From the NCBI RefSeq assembly GCF_030013205.1, contig NZ_CP122648.1: a stretch of 64,000 nucleotides of DNA, one strand, 5' to 3'. The position numbers and the translations under genes were made by a program. This DNA comes from Escherichia coli. GTDB lineage: Bacteria > Pseudomonadota > Gammaproteobacteria > Enterobacterales > Enterobacteriaceae. How positions within the stretch are numbered: position 1 is the first letter of the stretch; the number at the start of each line of letters is the position of its first letter. Shown piece after piece: positions 12,327-52,967 of this stretch. The notes under the pieces were generated by a model. The model did not search any database, was not told where the DNA came from, and was given only the letters and a program-made list of their open reading frames with translations.

Positions 12327-12380
12327 GATTGGCGTAAGGCCAGTCGGCCAGTCGCTGAAGGTTCATTAAGGAGAGCATCA

Positions 12381-13358
12381 ATGAAGCAGGATAAAAGACG
12401 CGGTCTGACCCGGATCGCATTGGCGCTGGCACTGGCAGGTTATTGTGTGGCACCTGTGGCACTGGCGGAAGAAAGCGCCTGGGTCGACAGCGGCGAAACC
12501 AATATTTTCCAGGGAACCATTCCGTGGCTCTATTCGGAAGGGGGAAGCGCTACGACAGATGCCGACCATGTAACGTTGACTTCTGATCTAAAAGGCGCTC
12601 GCCCGACAGGTAGTGAAACGGACAAGCGTCTTTACTCGGGTGATAAATTAACCGTAAGTTGGGAAATTGGTGATACCGAAGGCGACGTGGATCTTGGGGG
12701 ATTGGGCGATAACGCAAAGACTATCGATACTATCCGCTGGATGAGCTACAAGGACGCTCAGGGTAACGATCCAAAAGAGCTGGTAACGAAGGTGACCAGT
12801 TACACCCTTACCGATGCCGACCGTGGTCGTTATATCGGTATTGAAATTACGCCAACCACGCAGACCGGTACGCCAAACGTCGGGAATGCGCTGCATCTTT
12901 ATGACATTTCCACTGCCAGCGGCGGCGGAAGCGACAGCGACAACGTTGCGCCAGGGCCGGTGGTTAACCAGAACCTGAAAGTCGCCATCTTTGTTGATGG
13001 TACCAGTATCAACCTTATCAACGGCAGCACGCCAATCGAACTTGGCAAAACCTACGTGGCCAAACTGTACTCGGATGAGAACAAAAACGGCAAGTTTGAT
13101 GCGGGTACCGATGCTGACGTTACCGCCAATTATGACTTCCGTTGGGTACTTTCTGGCAGCAGCCAGCAGCTCGGCACCTCGGGTGGTATCGTTAACTCAA
13201 GCTTCGATAATAACAATCTGGTCATCCCTGCGACCAACGAAGACGCCAGAACCAACCTTAACGGCCCTGCGCGCGATGGTAAAGAAGCTCTTACCATCCC
13301 GACCAACGGCGACGGGGTACAGGGGTACAAACTTCACATTATTTACAAACACAAATAA
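12381..13358 (+). CDS. sinI: SinI-like secreted protein
   Basis: 325 aa with signal peptide ...VAPVALA. The C-terminal ~90 aa are paralogous to the SinH C-terminus (...IPATNxxA...GDGxQGYxLxxxYxxK). Confidence 0.7.
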   Translation: MKQDKRRGLTRIALALALAGYCVAPVALAEESAWVDSGETNIFQGTIPWLYSEGGSATTDADHVTLTSDLKGARPTGSETDKRLYSGDKLTVSWEIGDTEGDVDLGGLGDNAKTIDTIRWMSYKDAQGNDPKELVTKVTSYTLTDADRGRYIGIEITPTTQTGTPNVGNALHLYDISTASGGGSDSDNVAPGPVVNQNLKVAIFVDGTSINLINGSTPIELGKTYVAKLYSDENKNGKFDAGTDADVTANYDFRWVLSGSSQQLGTSGGIVNSSFDNNNLVIPATNEDARTNLNGPARDGKEALTIPTNGDGVQGYKLHIIYKHK

Positions 13359-13369
13359 CGCGTACTCAG

Positions 13370-13398
13370 CAGCATTCCCGCAAGGGAATGCTGTTTCC
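13370..13398 (+). terminator. intrinsic terminator downstream of sinI
   Basis: Stem CAGCATTCCC-GCAA-GGGAATGCTG followed by TTTCC. Confidence 0.65.
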
Positions 13399-13399
13399 G

Positions 13400-13434
13400 C
13401 ATATTTTGCTTAATCCCGGATTAAGCAAAATATG
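13400..13434. repeat. 35-bp perfect palindrome between sinI and ratA
   Basis: CATATTTTGCTTAATCC-C-GGATTAAGCAAAATATG, with 17-nt arms that are exact reverse complements. Confidence 0.9.
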
Positions 13435-13478
13435 TTGATGCGACAAGCGTCCGTTTAACAACCGGTGGAGTTTCTGTC

Positions 13479-16400
13479 ATGTCCCTGACCCTGAATAAAA
13501 TCCTTGTGTTATGCGCATTGCTGATAAGCGCAATGCTGCCTGGGTGGTCATGGGCAGAATCTGCATGGCAAGACTCTTCAGATACGGTCGGCGAATTTAA
13601 CGGTACCGTGCCCACCGCCGACAGTGCCAGCATACCCGTCTACCAGGGCAGTGTCTTTCTGGATCCTGCAAAGACGCATGAGGTAGCGTTTACCGCTAAA
13701 CCGAGTGAATTCAGCGCGGATATTAGCGTCTCTAAATTGCTCGTCACCAATCCGCAAGACAGAGAAGGCGATATCATTTCCACCCCACGTTGGGAAAACC
13801 AAACGCCACCGACAGTATCTTTAGTTTGGGCGGATGCCGCGACGCCGGACACCTTACTGGACCCACAGCCAGTCGCAGATCGCTCGTTTTGCGCTCAGGG
13901 ACTTGCCGGGCGTTCGCTGGTCGCCTGGGCGCAGCCTGATCCCCAACAGACCATGCCGCTGTTATATTTACTCACCTCGACGGGCTATCCCTATGAAAGT
14001 GTTCTGACGCTCGCCGATCAGAAAGTGACGCTGAAGATTGCGCCCGCGCAGGGTGACCTTATTTCCGTCAGCGCCGCGGGCTATGACGAATCCTCCGGTG
14101 CGGCGAAAACGACGGTTGGCGGCAGTATCACGTTAACGGTCACCACCAAAGATTGCGTCGGTAATGTTGTGGGGAATATTCCTTTTGTTATCAAACGCAA
14201 AGATGCTGAAAACCGCCAGGGTGTGGTGAACAATACTGCGCCGGTAAAACTGGGCACGACCGAATTAACCACCACCGCGACGGAATATCGTGGTACTACC
14301 GATGCGAATGGTGTTGCCACGGTTACGGTCACCCAGGCCAACGGCCCTGGTGTAAAAACGCCGTTGGTCGCGAGCCTTGCGGGTATTGCTCAGGCCAGTG
14401 AAACGGCAGTGATCTTTACCGTCCTCACCAGCCCGGATGTCCCGCAGGCTACAATGTGGGGTCATATGCCCGATACGCTGAAGGCCCGTGATTACACTTT
14501 TAGTCGACCAAAACTGGCGGCGGAAGTCGATAATGAAGACGGTACGGTTAACGATCACAATGAAACCTGGTCCACCTTTACCTGGAGCGGCGCGGATAAA
14601 CATTGCGACATTTTGCCCGGAATGCGTCAGTTCGGTGCGCTGGCGACGGTGGTGCCAACGTCAGTGCAGGATGTGGCTGGTTGGCCGATGCAGGGTAATT
14701 TCTACTGGTCATCACTGGCGGGGATGAGTGGCCAGCACCATGCGGCGGATGTTTCGAACCGCAGCGAAGCGCAAAAACCGGACGATACGACGTTTATTGT
14801 GAGCTGTGTCGATAAAGAAGCGCCCGATGTTGAACCGAAGCTGGTACTGACGCCGGGCAGTTATGATTCGACGATAAAAGCGATGAAAGTAAAGGTGGGG
14901 GAAGAGGCTTCTTTACGCCTGACGATTACCGATAGCAAGAACAACGATCAGCCGCTGGCGTACTACTACTTTTCGCTGCATCTGGATGACGGCGTTAACC
15001 GTAAGAATCAAACTGACACCGCGTGGCAGGCGAATCCGGTACAAATAGCGGGCGGCAGTAATGTCCATCAGGTTGACGCGCATACCTATGAAGGGATCAC
15101 TGATGCTAACGGAGAGGCCTCTCTGACGCTGACCCAGCCAGGCGGTGTGGGGGTGAAAACTCACATCACCGCGAGAATGCGCAGCGATTTTACCGCCTCG
15201 GATGAGAAAGACGTTATTTTTACGGTGATCACCAGCCCTGATTCCGACAAAGCGCGGATGTGGGGACATATGTTGGGCATTATTGAAGCGAATAATATCT
15301 TTAAACGCCCACGGCTGGCGGATGAAACCGACAACGAACTGGGTGCAGTGCGGGAAAATAACGAAGACTGGGCGCTGTTTGATCAGAATAGCAGTATGCA
15401 GGCTGAGTGTGGTTTAGGTCATATTCCGAGCCAAAGCTCATTGCACAGTTTGTTTGCCGCACATCCAGCCAATGTCATCGGCACCGAATATGGCTGGCCA
15501 ACGTTGCAAAAAGCGTATCTTAGTGCGGTGGAAGAGACGTCGCACGCGTCGGTGAACCTGGCCACGGGCAACATCGACACCTATTCCGGCTTTAAGCAAA
15601 ACTACCTTTCTTGTTCGGGCAATGAGATGGTCGCCCAGATTGCTGCGACCACCGATCATGATGTTTCCACAAGCAGCAGAGCGCAGGCTAAAGTGGGTGA
15701 AACGATTACCATGACGGTACGCACCTTTAATGCCTTGAATAATGCGCCCGTGCCGTATACCGCGTTCACCATCACTAAAGATATGGGGAAAAATCGTCAG
15801 GGGCAGAGCACGGGTTTCGATGATCCAACCCGCGGCGCAATCGAGATGAATGGCACGCTCTACGGAACATCGCAACCGTCTTTAGTCTATGCAGGTACTA
15901 CGGATGCGCAGGGTTTTGCTACTGTGGAAATTAAGCAACCGCAAGGTGTGGGCTTAGCGACGCCGCTGAATATTGCGCCTGTAAACTCCTATATTCCCAA
16001 TACTGTTAATTACAATGTGATTTTCACTACGCTCACCAGTCCGGATGCGGTTGGCGCGCAGATGTGGGGGCATATGGATGAGACGATTACCGTCGATGCA
16101 TTAACCTTTGCCCGACCCCGGCTGGCTGCGGAAGTGTCCAGCCCGGACGGCACATTAACGGAAAATAACGAAGTGTGGTCGCGCGTTAGCCAGGCCAACA
16201 CTTCCAGCACCAGTAAAGGTGGCTGTGGTGCCAATATGCTCCCACGCCGTTCCCAGCTTAACGCGCTCTATGATGCTAACAGCGGTAACGCCGTTCAAAC
16301 GGTACACGGTTGGCCAACGCAGCGTCAGCCCTACTGGAGCAGTTCGCCCGCGGATCAGGTGCCGCATTACTACACCATAGCCCTCAACGATGGCGCGCGG

Positions 16401-19400
16401 ACCGTTGGCGGTAGCACGGCGGTTTATGTCAGTTGCCTGACGACGGCTAACAATCCTGCCAGCAGCATTACGCTGGAAGTGGTGGACCCGGCGCAGTGGA
16501 ACGCGGCAGCAAATGCGGCGAAGCTGAAAAAAGGCGAAACGCTACAGGTGAAGGTGACGGTAAAAGATGCTCAGGGCAATCCATTGGGTGATATGCCTTT
16601 TACGCTGAAGCGTGGCGATGGTTATACCCGATCAAACGAAAAACACATTGCCGGTAGCGGTGATGCGCTGGTTGCGCCGGTTGTGATCAATAGTGGCCTG
16701 GCGGATGAAACTTCGCTCAATGATACCGCCGCAGCATACAGCGCGATGACCGGTAGCGATGGCACTAAAATTCTCACTATTACCCGCCCGGATACCCATG
16801 GCACAAAAACGTCGCTGACCGCCGCGCTCTATTCAGACACAACGAAAAAAGCGACCCTCGATACCATTTTTACCGTTGTCACCAGCCCAGACAGCAATAA
16901 AGCGAAAATGTGGGGGCATATGCCGGAAACGGTGACGGCTGCGGATGGAACGGTCTTTAAACGCCCATTATTGTTGAAAGAGTTATCCAGTACGTCGGGT
17001 CGAACAGCGATTGCAGAAGATAATGAGGACTGGGCGCAATTTACCCAAACTCAGGCGACAAGCACATCCTCTAATGGTTGTGGTAGTGAATATGTTCCCT
17101 CTCAGGCCGGGCTGGAGTCATTGTATGAAGCCAACCGCGGCAATGCGATGAAAACGGTTCAGGGCTGGCCCGTCGCCTCAAGTTACCTTACCAGCACGAC
17201 AGGCAGCAGTAGTCTGGAACAGCGTGACTTAAAGGCCGTCAATCTCAGTTCAGGCACCAGTTCGATAATTCCATCGGCCACAAAAGAACTGCTTACCTGC
17301 CAGACGACGCCGATCGTCAAGGCTAGCCAAATCGTTCTTGAGGCTGCGGACCCCACAAAATTTGACAGTACGAATAATGTTGTCAAAGCGAAAAAAGGGG
17401 AAGAAGTCGTGGTTCGCGTGACCACTAAAGATTCGCAGGGTAACCCGGTGGGAAATACCGCGTTTACGCTTAAACGTAACCTTAGCGTCAATCGGGCAAA
17501 TGCGTCTACAACGGTGACAGCAGGCGCGCTCATCGTGACGGATGCCTGGGGTAACACGCAGAGTAATTTTTCCTCAACAACAGCACTGATTTATGGCGTT
17601 ACCGGCGCAGATGGTACGACAACACTTGCACTGAAACAGGACAATACCACGGGTTTAAAAACCGAACTGACCGCCATGCTGGATACAGATAATAACGTAA
17701 AATCAATGCTTCCGGTGGTCTTTACGGTGATAACCAGCCCCGATACCCCTAAAGCAAAATTCTGGGGGCATATGGCCGAAACGATGACCGGTGCAGGCGG
17801 GCTTATTTATAAAAGACCGTTATTGCAAGATGAGCTTTCCGTTACAACCAGTCGAAGCTCTTTTCAGGAAGATGGAGAGAGCTGGTCACTGTTCTCGCCG
17901 GACCAGTCGAACAACACATCTGTAAATGGTTGCGGTGCAGGATATGTCCCGATTGAAAGTGAGCTGGAGTCACTGTATGCCGATGAAGGTTACGTGCCAA
18001 TACATGACGTTACGGGATGGCCTGTATCACGCGCCTATATCTCCAGTACGGTTGTTGCCTATTACACTCAAACATTTAATTTTAAAGCGGTTTCGTTAAA
18101 AACGGGTGATGGAACGGAGGTCATGTCAAGCAGTCTAGGACTGCTAAGTTGTCGGGCTACCCCAGTGGCGGTGACCAGCCACATTATTGTTGAAGCGAAC
18201 GATGCGACACAATTTGTCAAAGTTGACGAAACCCTCAGCGCACTAAAACGGAAAAAAGGTGACGACGCGGTGATTCGCGTGGTGACAAAAGATGCGCAGG
18301 GAAATGTCGTACCAAATGTTCCGTTTATTCTCAAACGTGAAGGATCGACAAATCGCCAGAATGTACAGTTGTCGAACAGAACTATCACTGTAATCAACGC
18401 TGCGGGAACGTCGGCAAGAGTGGATACTCCATCAATCTCCCTTTATGCGGTGACAGGTGCAGACGGGACAGCCACGTTTACGGTAAAGCAGGATGATTCT
18501 ATAGGCCTGGTAACCAATGTGTACGCTCAGGCCTATCAGTCGAGCCTGGAATCCAACAAATTACCCGTGATGTTTACCGTGATAACCAGCCCGGATACCC
18601 CCCTGGCAAGTTACTGGGGGCATATGGCGGAAACGTTCACTACGCGTTCTGGTACTGCCTTCAAACGCCCCTTACTCTCTGCTGAAAGATCGTCGGGCCA
18701 GTCGTTTATAGAAGACAATGAAGAGTGGGCCGTGTTGAGATCGGCAACAAAGGGGGATATCGATAAAAGCGGGTGCGATGTACATTATCAACCACTGTTA
18801 AGCGAACTACAGGCATTGTACGACGAACACCCAAGTCGTGCGATAAAGACCGATCTGGGTATTCCGGTAAATAGCTACTGGTGGGCTTACGACATGGTGG
18901 CATATGCGGGTAACTGGTACGATCAATATATTTATCTGTTAAATGGATCAAGTGGAAGAGCGTCTTCAACCACCTCGGCATTAATGCTGTGCCTGGTAAA
19001 CCCTCATCCAGAGGCGGCTTCTATTGAAATGACCTCAACGGCGGAGGATGCAACGAAAACGGCCAGCAATGATGGCAGGCCCAGCGCAACAGCGAAGAAG
19101 GGAGAGGTTATCCCGATGACTGTTACGGTGCGAGATAGCGCAGGCAATCCACTGCCAGGTGCCAGCTTTAACCTTAAACGAGGAACTGCGCTGAACCGCG
19201 CTAAAGCTGCGTACGATGCCTCTGCAGATGATCTTACCATCATACCTGTGGAACCTACTGGGGTAACGTCAATCTTGTATGGGGATGGGACGCAGGCTCT
19301 TCTGAAGACAGGGAGCGATGGTAAAGCTACGTTTGAGGTCAGCCAGAATAGCAGTTATGGGCTGTCAACGCCGCTCAGCGCAGAACTCATGCGCGATACC

Positions 19401-21521
19401 TCGAAAAGCGTCACGCTGGATGTCATTTTCACGGTGATAACCAGCCCGGATTCGCCAAAAGCGAAATACTGGGGCCATATGCCGGAAACGTTTACCAGTT
19501 CGGCAGGCGTGACCTTCAAGCGCCCATTACTGGCAGCGGAAGCGACTACGGGGAGCTCGGTAAACGGTAATAATGAGACATGGTCATATATATATAGTAC
19601 TCAAAAAGCGACGGCAGATTGTTCGCTGGAATATCAACCGCGCCTCAGCGAATTGCAGGGGTTATATGACGATCACCCAAACGGGGCGTTAACGAAAGAT
19701 CTGGGGTTGCCGATAGCGTCAGGAAACTGGTGGATTTATGAATTGCTTAACTCCAATGGTAGCTCCTGGTATTATCAGGTCTTTAACCTAAGTACGGGAC
19801 GAGTATCATCCGCACTCTCTCCGGTTGCTCTAATGCTCTGCCTGGCACAGCCTCACTCTAAGCCGTCAAGCGTTACCCTGACTTCAATAGCATTTGATGA
19901 GACGAGAACCGCAAGTAACGGCGGCACACCTTCGGCATCGGCGAAAAAGGGCGAGACAATCCCGTTAGTCGTGACAGTAAAAGACCAAAATGGCAACCTG
20001 GTGAGTGGTGAGGGCGTGACGCTTCAGCGGGCGCAGGCGAAAAGTCGTTCAGGAATTAGGCCCTCATCGTTGGCAGATGATCTTATTGTAGATGTTGTCA
20101 CACCGACAGCAACCCGTATTTCTTTTGCTCAGGATACGGCAAAATGGCTTGGTTTTACCGGCAGTGATGGCACAGTGACGTTCAATGTTACGCAAAACGC
20201 CACCACCGGCCTGGCAACGCCGTTTACGGTCTCGCTTGCACAAGATCCGCAGATCACGTCAAACTTGGACCTGATATTTACCGTGGTCACCAGCCCTGAC
20301 GCCCAGGATGCCGACTACTGGGGTCATATGCCAGAAACGGTGACAGCGGCAAATGGAACCGTCTTTGAACGACCGAAATTGTGGAAGGAGCTGCCATCGA
20401 CCTCCGGGGTAAATAAAACCAATAACAATAATGAGGACTGGCCCTATTTTTCGTCAACCACTAAAGCAAATGCCAGCCTCAGCCCTTGTGAGGAAGCCCG
20501 GCAACCGTTGCTCAGCGATATGAAGTCACTGTATCAACGTTATCCCAATAACACCCTTACGACGGAAACTGGCTGGTCAGTTTATTATTACTGGTGGGCG
20601 CAGGATAAGACTACAGATGGTAAAAATCAGTCGCTCAATATGAAAGATGGCACAACGACATTGAATGGTAATGCCGCTTATCAGGCGTGTCTGGTGTCTG
20701 CGCGCGCGACGGTTTCCAGCGTCACACTGACCTCAACAGCGTTTGATGCTGACAGCCAGGCGGCGAAAGTGAAAAAAGGCGAAGCCATGCCCGTTACCGT
20801 GACGGTGAAAGACAGCGCCGGGAATACGGTACCGAATGTGGAATTTACTTTGAAACGTGGCGATGCATCGCCGCGTAACGCTGGGGCGACGTTGTATGGT
20901 GATGTGGTGGCGATGGACGATCTCATCGTTCAGCCGTTATCTGGTTCGGCTGTTACGCTGAGTGAAAGCGGTAATACCATTAGTGGCATGACAGGCGCGG
21001 ATGGGACGGCAAGTTTTACGCTCCGCCAGGATAATACCCCTGGTTATAAAACGCCACTGACGGTTACTCTGGCTAATTACGCTTCCGCGACAGACACGCT
21101 GGACGCTATTTTTACGGTACCAACCAGCCCGAATGTTTCCTCGGCGCACTTTTGGGGACATATGGCAGACACTGTAGTGGTGAATGGTAAATCGCTACAT
21201 CGACCGTTGTTAACGACAGAATTGCCGTCCGGGGCTAATCCCGTATCCTCACCGATTATTAACTACGAAAACTGGGCTTCTGCACATATCATTGATGCCA
21301 GTAAATGGGATATTGCAAGGCAGTGTGGCAGCATAGAAAATGCACCGACATACAATGAATTAGAGTTGTTGCACACTGTTTTTAATTCACTGGGATGGCC
21401 GTCTTCACCAAGTTTTCCTTATTTGTCCTCTCAACAGTGTGGGATGGACGAAGGCACTGGAGCACAGGATTGTAGTATCACGCTAATGAATAAACCGGGT
21501 CTGGTGACCTGCTTCCAGTAA
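13479..21521 (+). CDS. ratA: RatA/RatB-like giant repetitive surface protein (Ig-like + lectin-like modules)
   Basis: 2680 aa with signal peptide ...GWSWA. Nine tandem modules each contain a conserved block (I/V)FTV(I/V)TSPDxxxAxxWGHMxET...RP(L/R)L...(N/E)(E/D)W...C(G)...GWP...YW(S/A). The position after sinI matches the CS54-type island. Confidence 0.75.
14410..21150 (+). repeat. nine in-frame tandem modules (~0.80-0.85 kb period) inside ratA
   Basis: The FTVxTSPD motif recurs near 14415, 15215, 16020, 16866, 17720, 18572, 19425, 20275 and 21110. Confidence 0.85.
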
Positions 21522-21580
21522 CCAGCATGGCGCATCTGGCGTGGCCTGGGAGCCAGTGCCGGATGCGATGCTGGCGCATC

Positions 21581-22987
<1,407 letters not shown>

Positions 22988-24653: not shown

Positions 24654-26231
24654 ATGACGGAAAACATTCATAAGCATCGCATCCTCATTCTGGACTTCGG
24701 TTCTCAGTACACTCAACTGGTTGCGCGCCGCGTGCGTGAACTGGGTGTTTACTGCGAACTGTGGGCGTGGGATGTGACAGAAGCACAAATTCGTGACTTC
24801 AACCCAAGCGGCATTATTCTTTCCGGCGGCCCGGAAAGCACCACCGAAGAAAACAGCCCGCGTGCGCCGCAGTATGTCTTTGAAGCAGGCGTACCGGTAT
24901 TCGGCGTTTGCTATGGCATGCAGACCATGGCAATGCAGTTGGGCGGTCACGTTGAAGCCTCTAACGAACGTGAATTTGGCTACGCGCAGGTTGAAGTCGT
25001 AAACGACAGCGCACTGGTTCGCGGTATCGAAGATGCGCTGACTGCAGACGGTAAACCGCTGCTCGATGTCTGGATGAGCCACGGCGATAAAGTTACCGCT
25101 ATCCCGTCCGACTTCGTCACCGTAGCCAGCACCGAAAGCTGCCCGTTTGCCATTATGGCTAACGAAGAAAAACGCTTCTATGGTGTACAGTTCCATCCGG
25201 AAGTGACTCACACCCGCCAGGGTATGCGCATGCTGGAGCGTTTTGTGCGTGATATCTGCCAGTGTGAAGCCCTGTGGACGCCAGCGAAAATTATCGACGA
25301 CGCCGTAGCTCGCATCCGCGAGCAGGTAGGCGACGATAAAGTGATCCTCGGCCTCTCTGGTGGCGTGGATTCCTCCGTAACCGCAATGCTGCTGCACCGC
25401 GCTATCGGTAAAAACCTGACTTGCGTATTCGTCGACAACGGCCTGCTGCGTCTCAACGAAGCAGAGCAGGTTCTGGATATGTTTGGCGATCACTTTGGTC
25501 TCAATATTGTTCACGTTCCGGCAGAAGATCGCTTCCTGTCAGCGCTGGCTGGCGAAAACGATCCGGAAGCAAAACGTAAAATCATCGGGCGCGTTTTCGT
25601 TGAAGTATTCGATGAAGAAGCGCTGAAACTGGAAGACGTGAAGTGGCTGGCGCAGGGTACTATCTACCCTGACGTTATCGAATCTGCGGCGTCTGCAACC
25701 GGTAAAGCACACGTCATCAAATCTCACCACAACGTGGGCGGCCTGCCGAAAGAGATGAAGATGGGCCTGGTTGAACCGCTGAAAGAGCTGTTCAAAGACG
25801 AAGTGCGTAAGATTGGTCTGGAGCTGGGCCTGCCGTACGACATGCTGTACCGTCATCCGTTCCCGGGACCAGGCCTTGGCGTTCGTGTTCTGGGTGAAGT
25901 GAAGAAAGAGTACTGTGACCTGCTGCGCCGCGCTGACGCCATCTTCATTGAAGAACTGCGTAAAGCGGACCTGTACGACAAAGTCAGCCAGGCGTTCACC
26001 GTCTTCCTGCCAGTACGTTCCGTTGGCGTAATGGGCGATGGTCGTAAGTATGACTGGGTTGTCTCTCTGCGTGCTGTCGAAACCATCGACTTTATGACCG
26101 CACACTGGGCGCATCTGCCGTACGATTTCCTCGGTCGCGTTTCCAACCGCATTATCAATGAAGTGAACGGTATTTCCCGCGTGGTGTATGACATCAGCGG
26201 CAAGCCGCCAGCTACCATTGAGTGGGAATGA
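24654..26231 (+). CDS. guaA: GMP synthase (glutamine-hydrolysing)
   Basis: 525 aa with a GATase domain (GVCYGMQ) and ATP-PPase motif SGGVDSS. The last 4 codons plus the stop lie inside the prophage attL core. Confidence 0.97.
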
Positions 26232-31448: not shown

Positions 31449-31463
31449 TTACCGTTGAGGTAA
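31449..31463. promoter_or_regulatory. phage palindrome site B (TTACC-GTTGA-GGTAA), leftward early promoter
   Basis: Perfect half-sites, 19 nt upstream of the 31429 start. The -10-like AATTAT abuts it on the upstream side. Confidence 0.65.
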
Positions 31464-31510
31464 TAATTATGCGTATATGGTTTGATGTCAATAGATATGA
31501 GTTAAAAAAA

Positions 31511-31525
31511 TTACCCGTTAGGTAA
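31511..31525. promoter_or_regulatory. phage palindrome site C (TTACC-CGTTA-GGTAA)
   Basis: Perfect half-sites, located between the repressor-gene terminator and site B. Confidence 0.6.
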
Positions 31526-31582: not shown

Positions 31583-32167
31583 TTATTGTTTGTTTTTTTC
31601 GTTCTGGTTGATGACAAATTCAATGTAACTTTCGATCTTTGCTTTCTCGGTTTCGGGTAACAATGCGTAGCGCGAGCGATCATAGTTGATGGTCGCAGGG
31701 TCGTGCGGGTGAATCAGTAATTCATAGCCGTGACGCCCGAATGCGGATGCAACATTCTCCAGGGTGGAAATGGAAACGCTGACCTCATTGTTTAACAGGC
31801 GGCTGATTGTCACCTGGGCTACGCCGGATGCGCGGTGAAGTTTTCCCTGTGTTGAAAGGTCGCGGCTTTCGCTCATCCAGCGTTCCAGGTTGTGAGCCGC
31901 CAGCTGGCCAATGTCGCTTGGGCCGACAGGCTGAAAACCTTCCTGAGAAAGCGAGCGATCGATATCAAGCCAGTTACGGGGTTTATTGGCGGCAGCTTCA
32001 ATTTTTCGTGCAACCTGGTCGCCGATAACCTTCTTGCCAAGAGCCCAGCGGTTTACCAGATTTGCCTGAGTTCCAAGTTTTTCAGCCATCCGCGTCTGAA
32101 CACCATTGAATTCACGGTCGATCAAGTCGTTGAGATTTTGCCTGCGGACGTCCTGGATACTTTTCAT
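31583..32167 (-). CDS. prophage repressor candidate with two XRE-type HTH domains
   Basis: 194 aa. HTH 1 is QTRMAEKLGTQANLVNRWALGKK. HTH 2 is QGKLHRASGVAQVTISRLLNNEVSVSISTLENVASAFG. Divergent from a Cro-like gene across a region with three palindrome sites. I see no S24 peptidase-like C-terminus. Confidence 0.7.
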   Translation of the reverse strand: MKSIQDVRRQNLNDLIDREFNGVQTRMAEKLGTQANLVNRWALGKKVIGDQVARKIEAAANKPRNWLDIDRSLSQEGFQPVGPSDIGQLAAHNLERWMSESRDLSTQGKLHRASGVAQVTISRLLNNEVSVSISTLENVASAFGRHGYELLIHPHDPATINYDRSRYALLPETEKAKIESYIEFVINQNEKNKQ

Positions 32168-32222: not shown

Positions 32223-32237
32223 TTACCCAACAGGTAA
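32223..32237. promoter_or_regulatory. phage palindrome site D (TTACC-CAACA-GGTAA)
   Basis: Perfect half-sites in the repressor/cro intergenic region. On the repressor strand GGTAATATT supplies the -10-like TAATAT. Confidence 0.65.
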
Positions 32238-32239
32238 AT

Positions 32240-32254
32240 GCACCTCATAGGTAA
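32240..32254. promoter_or_regulatory. phage palindrome site D' (GCACC-TCATA-GGTAA)
   Basis: Degenerate left half (2 mismatches), 2 nt from site D. Confidence 0.45.
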
Positions 32255-32270
32255 CTATCCTTGATTTTTG

Positions 32271-32285
32271 TTACCTTATGGGTGA
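32271..32285. promoter_or_regulatory. phage palindrome site E (TTACC-TTATG-GGTGA), overlaps rightward promoter
   Basis: One mismatch. It overlaps a candidate promoter with -35 TTGTTA (32268-32273), a 17-nt spacer and -10 TATTAT (32291-32296), ahead of the cro-like ATG at 32322. Confidence 0.6.
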
Positions 32286-32321: not shown

Positions 32322-32552
32322 ATGAGCGATAACGGACATTTCGATTTCAAAAAGCACTGGCTTGCACTTACTCCGGATGAGCGTGAAGCCTTCGCACAGG
32401 AAGCCGGAACGACGAGTCACTATATCCAGACTCACTTAACAGGTAAGCGCAAAATGCCAGGTAAAGTATTGATGAATGGGCTTTTTAAAGCCTGTAAAAC
32501 AAGACAATGGCTGCGCTCAAAAGCAGAACTGGCATACTTCTTCTACTCATGA
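32322..32552 (+). CDS. Cro-like small DNA-binding protein
   Basis: 76 aa, divergent from the repressor gene. HTH-like segment EAFAQEAGTTSHYIQTHLTGKRKM. Confidence 0.6.
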   Translation: MSDNGHFDFKKHWLALTPDEREAFAQEAGTTSHYIQTHLTGKRKMPGKVLMNGLFKACKTRQWLRSKAELAYFFYS

Positions 32553-32607: not shown

Positions 32608-32622
32608 GTACCTCAAAGGTAA
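32608..32622. promoter_or_regulatory. phage palindrome site F (GTACC-TCAAA-GGTAA)
   Basis: One mismatch, 11 nt after the terminator and upstream of the replication-module genes. Confidence 0.55.
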
Positions 32623-34571: not shown

Positions 34572-34586
34572 TTACCCATCGGGTAA
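34572..34586. promoter_or_regulatory. phage palindrome site G (TTACC-CATCG-GGTAA)
   Basis: Perfect half-sites. The -10-like AATAAT abuts the left half. Confidence 0.6.
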
Positions 34587-35755: not shown

Positions 35756-36317
35756 CTATCAGGCACTGCGTGACAAGGCAGAGAAAGCAACGTGTGGTGA
35801 GTGGTCGATCGAATATGGAGATGGCAGCTTTGATGGTGATGATGCACTAATTCATCGCGAGGCTGCTGGATATATTCCCATTTGCAGAATTGAAGGAGCG
35901 CATCCTGAAAGCGGTTTCGATGAAGATTTCCAAATGGAACAGCAGGCCAATGCTGAATTCATCGCTGCAGCCAATCCGGCTACCGTCTTGGCGCTGCTTG
36001 GCGAGCTGGAAGCAGCAAAAAAGCGCATAGCAGAACTGGAAGCCGAACTCGTAAGCCAAACTTACAAGTTGAACGAGCTATCGGGCAACTCTCCGGTAAC
36101 TCCGGATGGTTGGATAAGCTGTAGTGAGCGAATGCCGGATAGCAAAACAGCCGTTCTTGTTGCCAGGGAGTTTGACAGGAAAGGTGACTGGCGAATGAAA
36201 TGGGCGACTTACATCCCTGGGCATCCTGACGCTAATGATGGGTGGATAATTCCTGGTGCGTCGTGGATACCATCACACTGGATGCAACTACCAGAACCGC
36301 CGCAGGAGGCGAAATGA
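35742..36317 (+). CDS. Ead/Ea22-like protein with DUF551-like C-terminus
   Basis: 191 aa. N-terminus ALRDKAEKATCGEW, a coiled coil LLGELEAAKKRIAELEAEL, and a C-terminus W(I)SCSERMPD...SHWMQLPEPP typical of DUF551. Confidence 0.6.
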   Translation: MSEIDYQALRDKAEKATCGEWSIEYGDGSFDGDDALIHREAAGYIPICRIEGAHPESGFDEDFQMEQQANAEFIAAANPATVLALLGELEAAKKRIAELEAELVSQTYKLNELSGNSPVTPDGWISCSERMPDSKTAVLVAREFDRKGDWRMKWATYIPGHPDANDGWIIPGASWIPSHWMQLPEPPQEAK

Positions 36318-37333: not shown

Positions 37334-37384
37334 CGCCTGTTATTAACCTGTGGGTCGTAACAGACCCACTAATGGAGAAAGAAG

Positions 37385-37753
37385 ATGATCACCGACAAAC
37401 TGTTGATGTTCTCCGAAGCTCAGGCGGTTACGAATACCGCGGCTTCTACTGACGTAATCGATCTCGGTCCAATTGACGGAAAACGTCGTGATATCGGCGT
37501 GGGTTACCCGCTTGAGTTTTGGGCGCTGGTTAACACAGCCGCCGCGGCAAGCGGTGATGCAACTGTAAACATCCAGTTGCAGGCGAGTGAGAATAACAGC
37601 TCATGGACCACTATTTATGATAGTGGCGCACTGGCAAAGACCGCCCTGACAGCAGGTAAACGAGTTGTTTCTGCAAAGGTGCCTGCCGGTGTTCAGCGAT
37701 ATCTGCGTGTTAACTACTCCGTCGCAACTGGCCCACCGGGACAATTACGTTAA
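37385..37753 (+). CDS. capsid decoration/cement-like protein, possibly 3'-truncated
   Basis: 122 aa. MITDKLLMFSEAQAVTNTAASTDVIDLG...YLRVNYSVATGP resembles Bbp16/epsilon15 gp10-type cement proteins as I recall them. The C-terminus ends abruptly just before another junction. Confidence 0.4.
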   Translation: MITDKLLMFSEAQAVTNTAASTDVIDLGPIDGKRRDIGVGYPLEFWALVNTAAAASGDATVNIQLQASENNSSWTTIYDSGALAKTALTAGKRVVSAKVPAGVQRYLRVNYSVATGPPGQLR

Positions 37754-37794
37754 CGGCAAGCGCCTCTATTTTTGGCGCGGAGCAGGTAGGCAAA

Positions 37795-38391
37795 TTGTTC
37801 TATCTGGAACAGCCTGCAGTGGATTCTGTGCCGGTAACCAGCAATACCGCTGTAGTGGTTCGTGCCAACAGGAACGTCCCGCCATCCCTCAGGAATACGG
37901 CCACCACGAACTGGCAGATGGCGCGCCGGACATTTGGAGGCCTGTCTCATCTTGAAGGCCAGACCGTAAACATTCTCTCTGATGCGAGCGTGGAACCACA
38001 GAAAGTGGTTTCCGGAGGTGCCGTCACGCTGGAATCTCCGGGGGCTGTAGTGCACATCGGCCTGCCAATAACTGCTGAATTCGAAACACTGGATATCAAC
38101 ATTAACGGACAGGAAACGCTGCTGGACAAAAAACAGGTGATCCCCTCCGTTACTCTGGTTGTGAATGCCAGTCGCGGCATCTGGGCGACTACGCCTGGCG
38201 GTAAATGGTACGAATATCCACAGCGTGAATTCGAGTTCTACGATGATCCTGTTGATGATGCTACCGGAAAAGTAGAAGTGAAACTGGACAGTAACTGGGG
38301 CAAAAACGGACGTGTAAAAATCCGTCAGCTTGATCCGTTGCCGCTGTCTGTTCTTGCCGTTATTCCTCGCCTTACTGTTGGGGGATTTTGA
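37795..38391 (+). pseudogene. virion/tail protein, C-terminal remnant
   Basis: The frame opens only at 37714, with no ATG (a TTG at 37795) and no Shine-Dalgarno. The translated ...GGLSHLEGQTVNILSDASV...GLPITAEFETLDI... looks like an internal-to-C-terminal part of a larger structural protein. Confidence 0.4.
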
Positions 38392-48225: not shown

Positions 48226-48240
48226 TTACCTTTAAGGTAA
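48226..48240. promoter_or_regulatory. phage palindrome site I (TTACC-TTTAA-GGTAA)
   Basis: Perfect half-sites, 27 nt upstream of the 48199 start. On the gene strand the -10-like TAATAT abuts the site (TAATATTACC). Confidence 0.65.
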
Positions 48241-48306: not shown

Positions 48307-48999
48307 TCAGAAGAACCCTGCCTTGTCGTTGATGTACTCCGCGTGCGTCTGGATATCACGCAGGCATTTGCTCACACCGACGATGTAGCAGAACATGGTG
48401 GTCAACTCCGCCGCCGCGCCCGATACGTCGTGCCCGTCTTCCTGTAACTGGTTCAGCAGATTCATCAGCAGTGAGTTCTCCGTCAGGCCGAGAACACCAG
48501 ACGGAGAATGAATCAGGCTGCGGTAGCCGGGCTTCAGCGGGGCACTGTAGGTTTTGTTCTCTATCTTCATTGCCTGCATCACTGCTGATGCTGTGGCGTT
48601 GGCTACCTGGTCGGCAACCATCTTTATGCGTTCTTCCTGCGGGAGCGAGTTTTTAATGTAACTTCCGGTGCGGCGGATCTGAGGAAGAACCTCACCTGTA
48701 ACCCATTCAAGAAATCTGAATGCTCTCGTTCCCTCAGTCATTGCCTCTTTGCAACGCAGAATAAGGATGTAGAGACCTGATTCTGAAACGATGGATAGTT
48801 CTTGTATTCCACCAGGGGTCTGTATTGAATACAGCCCCTTTTTGTTCCAGCCTTTTTTATCAAGTTTTCTCGCTTGTGTAACATCAATATTCAAAGCATT
48901 GCACACATCTTTGGTGACAAACCAAGGTTCTCCGTCAATCATGAACATACGGATCTGGCAGGATGACTCAAAGGAAAAGATGGAAGGTTTGGTATTCAT
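48307..48999 (-). CDS. BRO-N domain protein (antirepressor-like) with uncharacterised C-terminal domain
   Basis: Start placed at ATG 48999 (MNTKPSIFSFESSCQIRMFMIDGEPWFVTKDVCNALNI...), 230 aa. The N-terminus is a typical Bro-N/KilA-N-type DNA-binding domain. The C-terminal 72 aa are paralogous to the 85-aa ORF at 50145-50402. Confidence 0.75.
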   Translation of the reverse strand: MNTKPSIFSFESSCQIRMFMIDGEPWFVTKDVCNALNIDVTQARKLDKKGWNKKGLYSIQTPGGIQELSIVSESGLYILILRCKEAMTEGTRAFRFLEWVTGEVLPQIRRTGSYIKNSLPQEERIKMVADQVANATASAVMQAMKIENKTYSAPLKPGYRSLIHSPSGVLGLTENSLLMNLLNQLQEDGHDVSGAAAELTTMFCYIVGVSKCLRDIQTHAEYINDKAGFF

Positions 49000-49149
49000 G
49001 GCGATCACCTTTGTAGTTAGGTTAATCACCACCGCTGAGACCAATCAGATGGTGGTGAACTGTGCAGAGTTGGTCTTACCGGCTACAAAGGAACCCGGCG
49101 CACCTTTCGGTGCCCCCACACAGCCCACCATAGAATAGGTGCGCTTTAC

Positions 49150-49262
49150 ACATAAAAAAACCGCTTATGCGGCATATGTGCCTCTGTAGTAATCCGGGAG
49201 ACCAATCCCGGCACTGGATTTTGCCAGTGCCCGATTACTATGGCACAAGAGGAGTGCGATGT
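49150..49262 (-). promoter_or_regulatory. structured leader upstream of the BRO-N gene (three-way junction plus weak terminator)
   Basis: Outer stem 49187-49194 (TAGTAATC) pairs with 49233-49240 (GATTACTA) and encloses two abutting hairpins, CCGGGA-GACCAA-TCCCGG and CACTGG-ATTTTG-CCAGTG. On the minus strand this is followed by CCGC-ATAA-GCGG plus seven U (49154-49172). Confidence 0.4.
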
Positions 49263-49266
49263 AAAT

Positions 49267-49281
49267 TTACCGCAAAGGTAA
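49267..49281. promoter_or_regulatory. phage palindrome site J (TTACC-GCAAA-GGTAA)
   Basis: Perfect half-sites. On the minus strand the candidate promoter is TTGATT, 17-18 nt, TATCAT, with the -10 abutting the site (TATCATTACC). Confidence 0.6.
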
Positions 49282-49359
49282 TGATAAACGCGAAGAAATA
49301 TTAAAATCAACCGTATTTGGTTGATTGCGTTTAACGCTTGATCACCTGAAAGCAAGATA

Positions 49360-49374
49360 TTACCTTTAAGGTAA
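49360..49374. promoter_or_regulatory. phage palindrome site K (TTACC-TTTAA-GGTAA)
   Basis: Perfect half-sites, 20 nt upstream of ATG 49395. Confidence 0.6.
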
Positions 49375-49394
49375 TGTTATTGTGAGGAAAGGCA

Positions 49395-50123
49395 ATGGAA
49401 GTTTTCTGGGTAGTTGTTGGTGTGGTTGCGGTGATTATTTACGTTATCAACCAGAACAAGACTAAGATCTCTGATCGTACGGTCGTTAATCATAACAAAA
49501 CGATAAAGACTGAAGATGGGGAGATAACGATTAATCGTACACAGGTGATAGAACACACCTCCACTCAGTTTCAAAAAACGGGAGATAATGCGCCTAATAT
49601 TTCCGTACCTCCTGCTTATGATAGCGCGGTAATCCAGACATATTATAAACAGCAGGAGTTAGCAAAAGAGAGGCAACTGATTCAGCCAAAGCCGTTTACA
49701 GCTGAGCTTCCACCCGGAGTGTCAACGCGTCCGGCATATCATGGAAGATTCCCTGGTGATGACATATCGTCTCAGTCATCTAAAAAAGCACCTCAGGCAG
49801 TATCAGAGCCAGCAAGAATACCTTCTGTATCGCCGCCAAAAGAAGAATCAGCTAACAGAGTTTCAAGTGGTAGCAAGCAGTGCTTGCGATGCAGAATAAA
49901 CCTTCCATATGAAAAATTCAGGAAATCGTCAAAAAATCCAGATGGATTGACTAAGTGGTGTGCAAGGTGTCTCGATGGCCCAAAGAATACACGCCATATG
50001 AAGTGGTGCCCAATTTGTAATGTCCGCAGAAAACGAACTAGCTTTTACCCTAATAATCAAAATGCGGACGGCTTAATGGCATGGTGCAAAACGTGCTGGG
50101 ACGAGCACAAAGCGAAACGATAG
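49395..50123 (+). CDS. membrane-anchored protein with two C-terminal zinc-ribbon-like repeats
   Basis: 242 aa. N-terminal TM segment MEVFWVVVGVVAVIIYVI, a low-complexity linker, then two units CxxC-x(n)-DGLxxWCxxC (CLRC...DGLTKWCARC and CPIC...DGLMAWCKTC). Confidence 0.65.
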   Translation: MEVFWVVVGVVAVIIYVINQNKTKISDRTVVNHNKTIKTEDGEITINRTQVIEHTSTQFQKTGDNAPNISVPPAYDSAVIQTYYKQQELAKERQLIQPKPFTAELPPGVSTRPAYHGRFPGDDISSQSSKKAPQAVSEPARIPSVSPPKEESANRVSSGSKQCLRCRINLPYEKFRKSSKNPDGLTKWCARCLDGPKNTRHMKWCPICNVRRKRTSFYPNNQNADGLMAWCKTCWDEHKAKR

Positions 50124-50146
50124 GCCGCTAGAGCGGCCTTTTCTTT
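50122..50146. terminator. bidirectional terminator between convergent genes
   Basis: AGGCCGC-TAGA-GCGGCCT followed by TTTTCTTTAT. Confidence 0.75.
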
Positions 50147-50402
50147 ATGTGGTTTGTTTTCGTAATTGTTCGGCACAATAGTCGAGATGTGTTTGCAGAT
50201 CCTGCATAGACATCTGTGAGCTGGTGACGTAGTTAATCAGTGCAGTCAGTTCGGCAAGTGGGCCATCGACATTAAATCCATCCTTATCGAGATCCCGGAG
50301 TAATTTCATCAAGTGCGATCCCTCCACCAGTGATCTGACGCCTCCCGGCGTGTGAATCCTTTCGGTAAATCCGTCTTCCAGTGGATAGTGATACTGCTGC
50401 AT
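50145..50402 (-). CDS. 85-aa protein paralogous to the BRO-N protein C-terminal domain; candidate SOS-controlled antirepressor
   Basis: Start placed at ATG 50402 with a GGAGAA Shine-Dalgarno. 31 of 72 residues are identical to the BRO protein C-terminus in an ungapped hand alignment. A LexA box lies about 20 nt upstream. Confidence 0.65.
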   Translation of the reverse strand: MQQYHYPLEDGFTERIHTPGGVRSLVEGSHLMKLLRDLDKDGFNVDGPLAELTALINYVTSSQMSMQDLQTHLDYCAEQLRKQTT

Positions 50403-50421
50403 CTTATCTTCTCCATGCAAT

Positions 50422-50441
50422 AACTGTATATTTATACAGTA
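50422..50441. promoter_or_regulatory. LexA (SOS) box
   Basis: AACTGTATATTTATACAGTA compared with the consensus TACTG(TA)5CAGTA. CTGT-N8-ACAG is intact, and ACTGTATA-TT-TATACAGT is a perfect dyad. Confidence 0.75.
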
Positions 50442-50478
50442 TCAAATAATTTGTTTGCTATCCAGCACGTTTTGCAAA

Positions 50479-50493
50479 TTACCCGAAAGGTAA
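50479..50493. promoter_or_regulatory. phage palindrome site L (TTACC-CGAAA-GGTAA)
   Basis: Perfect half-sites in the divergent region between the 85-aa gene and the tailspike gene. GGTAATATC provides the -10-like TAATAT toward the tailspike. Confidence 0.6.
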
Positions 50494-50597
50494 TATCTAT
50501 TCGTATTCACAGTCTTTCTATCCATATGTGGTTTTTCAGGTAATAGAATAACCAGATATGCGGCGCAACGGGTGCTGCGACTATCTGGAGATTTAAC

Positions 50598-52967
50598 ATG
50601 ACGGTCTCAACCGAAGTTGACCACAACGAATACACAGGTAACGGCGTTACGACATCATTTCCGTATACCTTCCGTATTTTCAAAAAATCCGACTTGGTTG
50701 TTCAGGTGGTTGACCTTGATGAAAATATTGCTGTGCTGGCTCTTGATACTGATTACACAGTAACTGGTGCGGGAGGGTACAACGGCGGTAATGTAATTCT
50801 GTCGAAGGCGTTGGCTAACGGTTATCAGATTTCTATATCACGAGACCTCCCGGTTACGCAGGAAACTGATTTGCGTAATCAGGGTAAGTTCTTTGCAGAA
50901 GTGCATGAGGATGCGCTTGATAAGCTAACGATGCTGATTCAGCAGGTTCGAAGCTGGTTCCGGCTGGCGTTGTGTAAGCCATCCAGTATAGCGAATTGGT
51001 ATGACGCACTTAATAACTATATTCGTAATCTGAAAGACCCACGCGACCCTCATGATGCAGCTACAAAAAACTATGTAGATACCATTGTATTCTCTAACCT
51101 TAGCCGAACTCTCCGAGTTCCTGAGCCAATAAATCAGTTACCTCCAGCAGCAGTTCGGCGGAATATGATGCCAGCATTTGATAATGATGGTAATGCGATT
51201 GTTGTTATTCCTCCATCTGGGTCAGCATCTGATGTGCTTATTCAGTTAGCAAGTTCTTCCGATGGAAAGGGGGATGCTTTAGTTGCAGTTAAACAACCTT
51301 ATGCTAATTCTGTAACTATTACTCAACATCAGCACAACACCTATCTTCTTACCCCTTACCACTTCGGAGCAAAGGGAGATGGTATTGCAGATGACACTCT
51401 TGCCCTAAACCGCTGGTCCAATTGCGGAGCTAAGGTACTCTATTGGCCAGCAGGAAAATATCTGGTGAGCCCTACAAATGGTGTTTCTCTGGATATGGAT
51501 AACTACCATACAGGGGATTCCGCACTGACGGCGTGCGTAACCGTTCCCTATGGCGTGAAAATTTATACGGCTGGGACAGAAACCCAGTTATGCGTGAAGG
51601 ATGCTGACTCAGCATCGACCGTAGGTCTGGCCGTTAGCTACCCGGAGTCAAGTTATTCCCAGGGAGAAACCGACATCGGAAAATTCATGATTCGCCTGGA
51701 AAACGGAAATGGTCGGTACGGTATTCTTACTCCACTCAGGGAGGAAATGTTCACTGCGCACCGGGCGAAGTTCAAATTAGGAGCGCATTTCGGTCCTCAA
51801 CAGGGGCGTGATGACCTGACGGTGCTACAGTATTCGTGGGTAAATGGCATGCTGATTGGCGACGCTTTTAGCGGCTCAGTGCATGTCACTGGATACGGCA
51901 GCTATAACGTGCAGCAGGTTGAAGGTACGCAATTCCAGTGCGTGGCCGTTAAGATGAAGTCCGTTCGAGGTAACGTAGGTGTAGACATCAGATTCAACAC
52001 AAACAACTGGTGGAAGTTTGTCGAACTGAGTGACGGCGTTGAAGGGTTTGTTGTCAAGGACAGCGAAGGGCTTGGGGCATTTGTTGGAATCGACCTAACC
52101 AACCCAGCCAGCGAGCCAGGTGGATTTATCGATAACGTACACGTCAACGTTAAGCAAAACGGAGTACGAGCCAGAAACAGGCCATCCCTGCAAATCGGAA
52201 ACATTGAAGTCTATAAAAGTGATGGATTTGCCACTGACCTTGTTTACGATGCGGTGCTTCTGGTTGACTGCCAGGAAGTGACTATCAACTCTATTCACGC
52301 AATCGTCGGCAACTCAATCACAAATGCTCAGTCAGTAGTTAACTCGACAAACAGCACATTCCGCCTGAACTCATACTTTGCGCAAAACATCAGGTTCGTC
52401 GATTTTGTGGTTAATAGCCCTGACTGCTATGTCGGAGAGGGGACAATTAACCAGGTCGAGGCAGTTCACTCACTTTCTGGATCACAAAGCAACGACTTCC
52501 ACGGTAGTGATGTTCTGGTTAGATCCTACAGAAACAACGTTCGCCCACTTTACGCAGTGATGGATTCCGCTTTCAACAGGGCAAGGGCGAGGTTTCCACA
52601 AAATACAAGCCTCCAGGTGAGAACCTTTCTCGACTACACTGTGGCAGCAGCTGGGACTTTAACAATAGAACCAAGGCTTGACCCCTCCAGGTACTACATC
52701 ATCATGAGTGCTGGTACAGGTGCCTTCACCTATTCAATTGAGCTGGATAAAGTGTCTGCCGTAGTTGGTGATATTGTTTACATAAAGATAGCCGGGTCAT
52801 CATCTGCTAACCCAACAGTTTTGGTTAAAAATGGTATTGGTGGGACAACGCTCAGCACATTCAATAATATCGGTCCGATTCGTTTGAATTGTGCTTACAG
52901 ATTTAATGAGTCAGGTAACTGGGTGGCCTACTACATTACCCAAAGCGTTGAAACCACTTATGGCTAA
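50598..52967 (+). CDS. tailspike (epsilon15-type N-terminal adaptor domain, beta-helix depolymerase body)
   Basis: 789 aa. N-terminus MTVSTEVDHNEYTGNGVTTSFPYTFRIFKKSDLVVQVVD matches my recollection of the epsilon15 gp20-type head-binding domain. The FGAKGDGIADDTLALNRW motif is typical of pectate-lyase-fold tailspikes. Confidence 0.8.
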   Translation: MTVSTEVDHNEYTGNGVTTSFPYTFRIFKKSDLVVQVVDLDENIAVLALDTDYTVTGAGGYNGGNVILSKALANGYQISISRDLPVTQETDLRNQGKFFAEVHEDALDKLTMLIQQVRSWFRLALCKPSSIANWYDALNNYIRNLKDPRDPHDAATKNYVDTIVFSNLSRTLRVPEPINQLPPAAVRRNMMPAFDNDGNAIVVIPPSGSASDVLIQLASSSDGKGDALVAVKQPYANSVTITQHQHNTYLLTPYHFGAKGDGIADDTLALNRWSNCGAKVLYWPAGKYLVSPTNGVSLDMDNYHTGDSALTACVTVPYGVKIYTAGTETQLCVKDADSASTVGLAVSYPESSYSQGETDIGKFMIRLENGNGRYGILTPLREEMFTAHRAKFKLGAHFGPQQGRDDLTVLQYSWVNGMLIGDAFSGSVHVTGYGSYNVQQVEGTQFQCVAVKMKSVRGNVGVDIRFNTNNWWKFVELSDGVEGFVVKDSEGLGAFVGIDLTNPASEPGGFIDNVHVNVKQNGVRARNRPSLQIGNIEVYKSDGFATDLVYDAVLLVDCQEVTINSIHAIVGNSITNAQSVVNSTNSTFRLNSYFAQNIRFVDFVVNSPDCYVGEGTINQVEAVHSLSGSQSNDFHGSDVLVRSYRNNVRPLYAVMDSAFNRARARFPQNTSLQVRTFLDYTVAAAGTLTIEPRLDPSRYYIIMSAGTGAFTYSIELDKVSAVVGDIVYIKIAGSSSANPTVLVKNGIGGTTLSTFNNIGPIRLNCAYRFNESGNWVAYYITQSVETTYG

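Follow-up and report, generated by a model that had tools for sequence, protein, structure and literature searches.

A LexA box and small antirepressor gene in a defective epsilon15-like Escherichia coli prophage, probably orthologous to the Ant/Rep/LexA switch of Salmonella phage SPC32H

We found that an 85-aa gene and the LexA box in front of it, in a 64-kb stretch of Escherichia coli DNA (the window), are very probably the antirepressor gene ant and the LexA operator of an epsilon15-like prophage, orthologous to the Ant/Rep/LexA switch of Salmonella phage SPC32H. Both belong to an E. coli prophage of the epsilon15-like genus Uetakevirus, inserted at what we take to be guaA. In the undamaged lysogen, LexA would occupy a box overlapping the ant promoter and ant would be silent, and the prophage repressor Rep, which is without a self-cleavage domain, would shut the lytic promoters via TTACC-N5-GGTAA operators. 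Upon DNA damage, RecA would become active, LexA would cleave itself and ant would be transcribed; Ant would then bind Rep and dismantle the DNA-bound Rep tetramer, and the prophage would be derepressed. For the window, LexA occupancy, Ant-Rep binding and tetramer disassembly are predicted from the work on SPC32H. One report (PMC7380047, citing Kim & Ryu 2013 among others) describes Ant synthesis after LexA self-cleavage under SOS and inhibition of the repressor by Ant through protein-protein contact; another (PMC9638917) describes SPC32H Rep binding DNA as a tetramer, and tetrameric Ant binding two Rep dimers and breaking that tetramer. The Ant/LexA/Rep induction route of epsilon15-like phages was already described in 2013-2016, and the value of the present result is the annotation of a gene labelled hypothetical, with little added to the biology. 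The small ant gene would explain the mitomycin-inducibility of prophages whose repressor cannot cleave itself, and here the SOS-triggered module is still intact in a head-less prophage.

The LexA (SOS) box, AACTGTATATTTATACAGTA (50422-50441 in plus-strand reading, core CTGT-N8-ACAG at 50424-50439), is a perfect 8+8 dyad with ACTGTATA and TATACAGT arms around TT, and departs at two positions from TACTGTATATATATACAGTA, the LexA consensus of E. coli. An earlier reading of this DNA made from the letters alone (the sequence-only reading) had given the same box, core, dyad and mismatch count, all of which were correct when the sequence was re-read. The bare core CTGT-N8-ACAG is not significant alone (2 matches in the window vs 0.87 expected), but AACTGTATATTTATACAGTA is the only site with at most three mismatches to TACTGTATATATATACAGTA in the 64-kb window, where 0.00 are expected (100 shuffles). 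The weight-matrix scoring proposed in the sequence-only reading was run with a symmetrised matrix from 26 E. coli LexA sites, an approximate list after Lewis 1994 and Fernandez de Henestrosa 2000, and the box scored 27.9 bits, above every one of the 26 training sites (range 13.0-26.7) and above the largest maximum in 40 Markov-simulated 64-kb sequences (20.0 bits; mean maximum 12.2). The claim that this is the sole SOS box held for the whole 64 kb, with no other strong LexA-type site.

Two other sites in the window were rejected as LexA sites. The runner-up in the matrix scan, at 35864 and within an ORF, reaches 13.7 bits and is no better than chance, with about 0.23 sites of that strength in each simulated 64-kb sequence. 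The other CTGT-N8-ACAG match, at 37348 (CTGTGGGTCGTAACAG), has a GC-rich interior and is missing from the top matrix matches.

Next to the box lies ant, an intact minus-strand ORF for 85 aa (50145..50402, stop codon included; ATG at 50402), with the Shine-Dalgarno sequence GGAGAA read at 50409..50414 on the same strand, 6 nt before the ATG. The surrounding Shine-Dalgarno region, GCATGGAG, is conserved among enteric ant homologues. The sequence-only reading had proposed this gene, start codon and GGAGAA with a spacing of about 20 nt from the box, and was right; the 20-mer ends 19 nt before the ATG. When the product was compared with the PDB (phmmer), we found one solved structure, 5D50 chain E 'Anti-repressor protein' (E 1.3e-47, residues 2-85 aligned with 3-86), which is Ant of Salmonella phage SPC32H. 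Corroborating this match, BLASTP against the annotated ant product of SPC32H (KC911856) gave 88% identity (E 1e-57). The proposal of a LexA-controlled antirepressor is therefore borne out to the extent that the protein is an SPC32H Ant homologue and its putative LexA box stands in the SPC32H register. Codons of the two ant genes differ by 34 synonymous and 10 non-synonymous changes, and ant is, as judged at the codon level, under purifying selection. The window Ant is 100% identical to Ant of phages TL-2011b and EC.W1-9.

Domain searches placed Ant in no Pfam family (DUF724 reached 17.6 bits, below its cut-off of 38.4), and the Pfam scan of the 85-aa protein gave no Bro-N, P22_AR_N or ANT/KilAC domain. 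Its PHROG matches were phrog_450 and phrog_15539, both of unknown function, plus the C-terminal end of phrog_1760, an anti-repressor family in which the matched part is the tail of the Bro-N antirepressor. A search of 5.8 billion proteins with Ant returned only close enterobacterial relatives of at least 70% identity and with no Pfam domain; most of them have about 86 aa, and some gene calls are longer or truncated.

We then compared the box across 15 loci, namely the window, five Enterobacteriaceae genomes from a genome scan and nine phage records; the scan of genome contigs used a single-protein query, and its five extra loci are close relatives only. The source organisms span eight genera (E. 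coli, Salmonella, Citrobacter, Erwinia, Pseudocitrobacter, Scandinavium, Enterobacter and Klebsiella). The distance from box to ant ATG is fixed in all 15 loci, at 19 nt or, in the Klebsiella phages, 18 nt. Both in this comparison and in a 12-locus alignment, the CTGT and ACAG arms are conserved and the interior N8 varies freely, as one would expect if LexA contacts are under selection. In a five-way alignment, the window box matches those of SPC32H and epsilon15 column for column. Three Klebsiella phages (L010, L011 and L012) have one ATGT arm in place of CTGT (ATATGTATATATATACAGTA), with scores of 16-18 bits about 20-40 nt upstream of ant; from this arm, LexA repression may be weaker in these relatives.

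A mutated counterpart of this box is found in phage SPC32N. Kim & Ryu reportedly found in 2013 that SPC32H and SPC32N differ by two nucleotides genome-wide, and that the change in the LexA site of SPC32N leads to constitutive Ant synthesis and forced lytic growth. We found two base differences between SPC32N and SPC32H in an aligned stretch of 241 nt, one that turns CTGT into CTTT inside the LexA box and one in the tailspike N-terminus. The first drops the matrix score from 25.1 bits (SPC32H) to 18.4 bits (SPC32N). In the alignments, the window box lies at the position homologous to the mutated SPC32N box, in the ant promoter region.

A sigma-70 consensus scan of 49000-50700 called no promoter for ant, and two hand-built layouts were compared on the 12-locus alignment. 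In one (layout A), TGGATA (50464..50459) would be the -35 and, 17 nt further, the left arm of the box, TACTGT, the -10, so the start site would fall within the box and the Shine-Dalgarno sequence would be retained in the leader. TGGATA is part of a conserved block, TGCTGGATAG (50458..50467, minus strand; CTATCCAGCA in plus-strand reading), that has the Rep palindrome on one side and the LexA box on the other and is invariant in 10 of the 12 aligned loci; it may represent a binding site or the -35 region from which ant is transcribed. In the other (layout B, the placement put forward in the sequence-only reading), the -35-like hexamer TTGATA (50440..50445, minus strand) would be the -35 and the box the spacer, as in the recA promoter, and only a poor -10 (TTATTG/TATTGC) follows; the transcription start would then fall inside the conserved Shine-Dalgarno sequence. 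The sequence-only reading had noted TTGATA abutting the box on the upstream side, and we confirmed it at 50445..50440. Of the 12 aligned loci, the 10 that are not from Klebsiella keep TTGnTA or CTGnTA here, and in the two Klebsiella phages TTGATA lies one base further upstream. On this alignment the two layouts appear equally possible, and under either one LexA would cover core promoter DNA.

The flanks of ant also carry conserved elements. A GC-rich hairpin, a terminator (50122..50139), lies between ant and a convergent 242-aa ORF, and its homologue is annotated as a rho-independent terminator in epsilon15. Two blocks upstream of the divergent tailspike gene, ATCCATAT and GGTTTTTnnGGTAATAGAAT (50520-50550), are conserved across the genus, and a -10-like TAGAAT (50544-50549) stands there without a recognisable -35. 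From these elements, the tailspike gene may have a late promoter that depends on an activator.

The presumed target of Ant is Rep, a 194-aa prophage repressor encoded on the minus strand (31583..32167). Against the PDB, Rep matches 5D50_A 'Repressor' over its full length (E 4e-42), and it is a full-length homologue of SPC32H Rep at 42% identity. Pfam placed HTH_3 at residues 106-147 and a weak HTH at 21-61, and found no Peptidase_S24 domain in the 194 aa. The sequence-only reading had named this gene as the repressor candidate, with two HTH domains and no S24 module; HTH families are indeed the only ones that Pfam reports, and the homology to SPC32H Rep adds to the assignment. Rep is 100% identical to the repressors of phiV10 and ZX5. 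In its N-terminal 60 residues, which include NLVNRW, the window and SPC32H proteins are 55% identical, which fits an operator common to both phages. Conservation between the two extends to the region of the C-terminal helix and to NLVNRW as the putative recognition segment. Since Rep is only 42% identical to the co-crystallised protein, we infer rather than assert Ant-Rep binding for the window pair, from the co-occurrence of the two genes. Between the E. coli and Salmonella branches, identity is 88% for Ant against 42% for Rep, yet the two branches share the same operator half-sites. The asymmetry suggests a conserved surface of Rep as the site that Ant recognises, and Ant could be active on diverged Rep variants too.

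The presumed Rep operator is the phage palindrome TTACC-N5-GGTAA. The copy in the ant intergenic region, TTACCCGAAAGGTAA (50479-50493), had been pointed out before and is present as one of 10 exact copies in the window, which cluster on both sides of rep and before a cro-like gene. With at most one mismatch, there are 17 copies in the window vs 1.1 expected. SPC32H likewise has 10 exact copies in equivalent places, and the epsilon15 record labels the copy next to ant, homologous to 50479-50493, 'protein_bind: repressor'. In 13 of the 15 loci the palindrome keeps a position of -91 relative to the ant ATG, and in the window some 65-70 bp separate it from each of the divergent promoters (ant and tailspike). 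It may act on ant, as the dual control proposed in the sequence-only reading would have it, on the tailspike gene, or by looping. One operator pair (32223..32285; 32223 exact, 32271 with one mismatch) lies between rep and the divergent cro-like gene (32322-32552, phrog_35 match); the palindrome scan placed another (31449..31525) downstream of rep and upstream of the leftward early genes. Away from rep and cro, further palindromes occur at 34572 and 34634 (62 bp apart) and, with one mismatch, at 32608-32622.

The prophage is bounded by copies of a 17-bp att core, ATTGAGTGGGAATGATT, at 26217 and 55362, and spans 26217-55378 (about 29 kb). The same 17-bp core was reported for phiV10, epsilon15 and ZX5, and ZX5 integrates at the guaA 3' end (PMC9782041). 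Here the copy at 26217 lies at the 3' end of a 525-aa ORF (24654..26231), which by analogy with ZX5 we take as guaA. The region of ant and the tailspike gene (50598..52967, plus strand), its divergent neighbour and the mark of the conserved ant position, shares 96-99% identity with TL-2011b, phiV10, ZX5 and other phages of E. coli, and about 75% with epsilon15, SPN1S and SPC32H of Salmonella; all are Uetakevirus. The order of a terminator hairpin, then ant, divergent from the tailspike gene, is the same in SPC32H, epsilon15, TL-2011b and ZX5. A Rep homologue is present in each of the 35 phage records in which Ant is encoded.

The prophage is defective, with its regulatory and lysis modules intact. 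Two segments of TL-2011b have no equivalent in it. The first, 11443-18471, holds the genes for both terminase subunits, the portal and the protease and most of the capsid gene, and its loss leaves a junction at window 36988/36989; the second, 19220-22543, has its junction near 37736-37834. With head genes missing, the switch cannot end in virion release here. The ant locus is present in 530 of 5,426 complete E. coli genomes (about 10%), where it is annotated "hypothetical protein"; the small gene has the same label in phiV10, TL-2011b and ZX5, whereas the SPC32H record annotates it as 'ant: anti-repressor protein'.

ZX5 links the module indirectly to an induction phenotype in the E. coli branch. 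It has the identical box, the identical Rep and an Ant identical over residues 1-84, and mitomycin C lifts the titre of its lysogen 100-fold, from 1e7 to 1e9 PFU/mL (PMC9782041). The same 2022 study of ZX5 lysis and lysogeny deals with a Bro-N antirepressor only and mentions neither LexA nor SPC32H (PMC9782041).

A counterpart of that Bro-N protein is encoded in the window about 1.1 kb from ant. This second antirepressor (231 aa, ATG 49002; 48307..49002, minus strand) has a Bro-N domain (Pfam, E 2e-13) and an Ant-like C-terminal domain, and matches phrog_130 'anti-repressor Ant' as well as phrog_450 over residues 162-243; Pfam found no KilAC/ANT domain in it. It is 81% identical to ZX5 ORF4, and the two show no difference in the 124 residues that run from position 108 to the C-terminus. 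Overexpression of ZX5 ORF4 cuts lysogeny about 1000-fold (PMC9782041). The gene is preceded on the same strand by a trio of RNA elements that is also found in ZX5: a C4 antisense RNA (49048-49135; Rfam 78.6 bits, GA 45), an isrK-like RNA (49154-49230; 74.7 bits, GA 50) and a c4 a1b1 target (49191-49243; 39.9 bits, below the GA of 46.7). Rep palindromes flank the gene at 48226, 49267 and 49360, promoter-like sites overlap or abut the one at 49267, and the LexA matrix scan found no LexA box of its own. By its composition, 48307-49374 is a module like P1 immI and Gifsy isrK-anrP.

The two antirepressor genes of the window are separated by the 242-aa plus-strand ORF (49395-50123; phrog_6762), which has repeated CxxC zinc-ribbon segments resembling endonuclease VII and Stc1. 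ZX5 is without this ORF, and its small ant, isrK, C4 and Bro-N antirepressor are consecutive on the same strand.

The last 80 residues of the Bro-N protein are 42% identical to the small Ant (E 7e-16), and Ant matches only that part. We offer only tentatively, as a possibility we think somewhat doubtful, that the small Ant is a stand-alone version of a domain which binds the repressor and also makes up the Bro-N C-terminus, and that the two are differently wired inputs into the same Rep. If so, the inputs in E. coli Uetakeviruses would be SOS via LexA and an immI-type C4/IsrK circuit with Rep operators, the latter of which could serve as a Rep-derepressed amplifier or as a superinfection sensor. 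The conservation of Ant far above that of Rep would then allow action on diverged Rep variants genus-wide.

The presence of a second antirepressor bears on whether the small Ant still acts on Rep. With Rep so much more diverged than Ant between the window and SPC32H (42% against 88% identity), and with ORF4 able to lower ZX5 lysogeny about 1000-fold when overexpressed, Ant might no longer act on the diverged Rep of the E. coli lineage, so that the Bro-N antirepressor drives induction, or Ant might have a different target. We consider this very unlikely: Ant and Rep occur together in every record, Ant is under purifying selection, and Rep retains both NLVNRW, its putative recognition segment, and the region of the C-terminal helix. 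Moreover, the Bro-N antirepressor has no LexA box and so cannot alone explain the mitomycin induction of ZX5. We give still less credence to the idea that the ant-LexA module is a relic, left over without consequence for the cell now that morphogenesis genes are lost. The prophage measures only 29 kb between its att copies, with both TL-2011b segments gone, but no damage is seen in the ant ORF, its box, Rep, the operators, the integrase or the lysis genes, Ant is identical to that of TL-2011b and EC.W1-9, and SOS derepression would still drive the excision, replication and lysis genes. In any case, a relic would concern the outcome and not the identity of the element.

The box might also regulate the divergent tailspike gene, which shares its intergenic region, or another transcript, or be a chance AT-rich palindrome, as the bare CTGT-N8-ACAG, no rarer than chance, would allow. 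This is exceedingly unlikely, since the full 20-mer is far beyond chance, and the box is 19 nt from the ant ATG vs 156 nt from the tailspike ATG, with the ant spacing fixed across eight genera. The SPC32N change, too, falls in the box, and is reportedly the cause of constitutive Ant synthesis given in the Kim & Ryu 2013 abstract. We retain the reading of the locus as ant with its LexA operator, orthologous to the SPC32H switch.

That switch, the SPC32H Ant/Rep/LexA system, is the subject of Kim & Ryu 2013 (J Virol 87:11775) and Kim et al. 2016 (PNAS 113:E2480), with PDB entries 5D4Z and 5D50. The window resembles it in the 88%-identical Ant, the two-domain, S24-less Rep, the box position, the ant-tailspike synteny and the TTACC-N5-GGTAA half-sites. 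Unlike SPC32H, the window has E. coli as host, not Salmonella, a Rep diverged to 42% identity, a box nearer to consensus (27.9 vs 25.1 bits), a -35-like TTGATA where SPC32H has CTGTTA, deleted head genes and an adjacent immI-like module with a second antirepressor; around ant, the SPC32H and epsilon15 records have no second antirepressor gene annotated.

Kim & Ryu are also said to have found Ant structurally distinct from the antirepressors of siphoviruses and myoviruses. Our Pfam and PHROG scans of Ant gave no match labelled Tum or GfoA. The sequence-only reading had named 186 Tum, the Gifsy phages and N15 as precedents, and their logic stands, but as functional analogues; by sequence, the homologous precedent is instead SPC32H Ant/Rep. 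Tum of 186, the Gifsy-1/-3 and Fels-2 systems (Lemire et al. 2011, PMC3121763) and N15 AntC share this logic as functional analogues only, and PMC7380047 describes a LexA-repressed small antirepressor that inactivates a non-cleavable prophage repressor as a common logic. The Bro-N antirepressor region, for its part, is like P1/P7 immI (c4 RNA-icd-ant) and Gifsy-1 isrK-orf45-anrP (Hershko-Shalev et al. 2016, PMC4825925), with which it has in common C4 and isrK upstream of a Bro-N antirepressor and repressor operators overlapping the promoter region. Unlike P1/P7 and Gifsy-1, the Bro-N antirepressor of the window is without KilAC/ANT and has a C-terminus homologous to SPC32H-type Ant.
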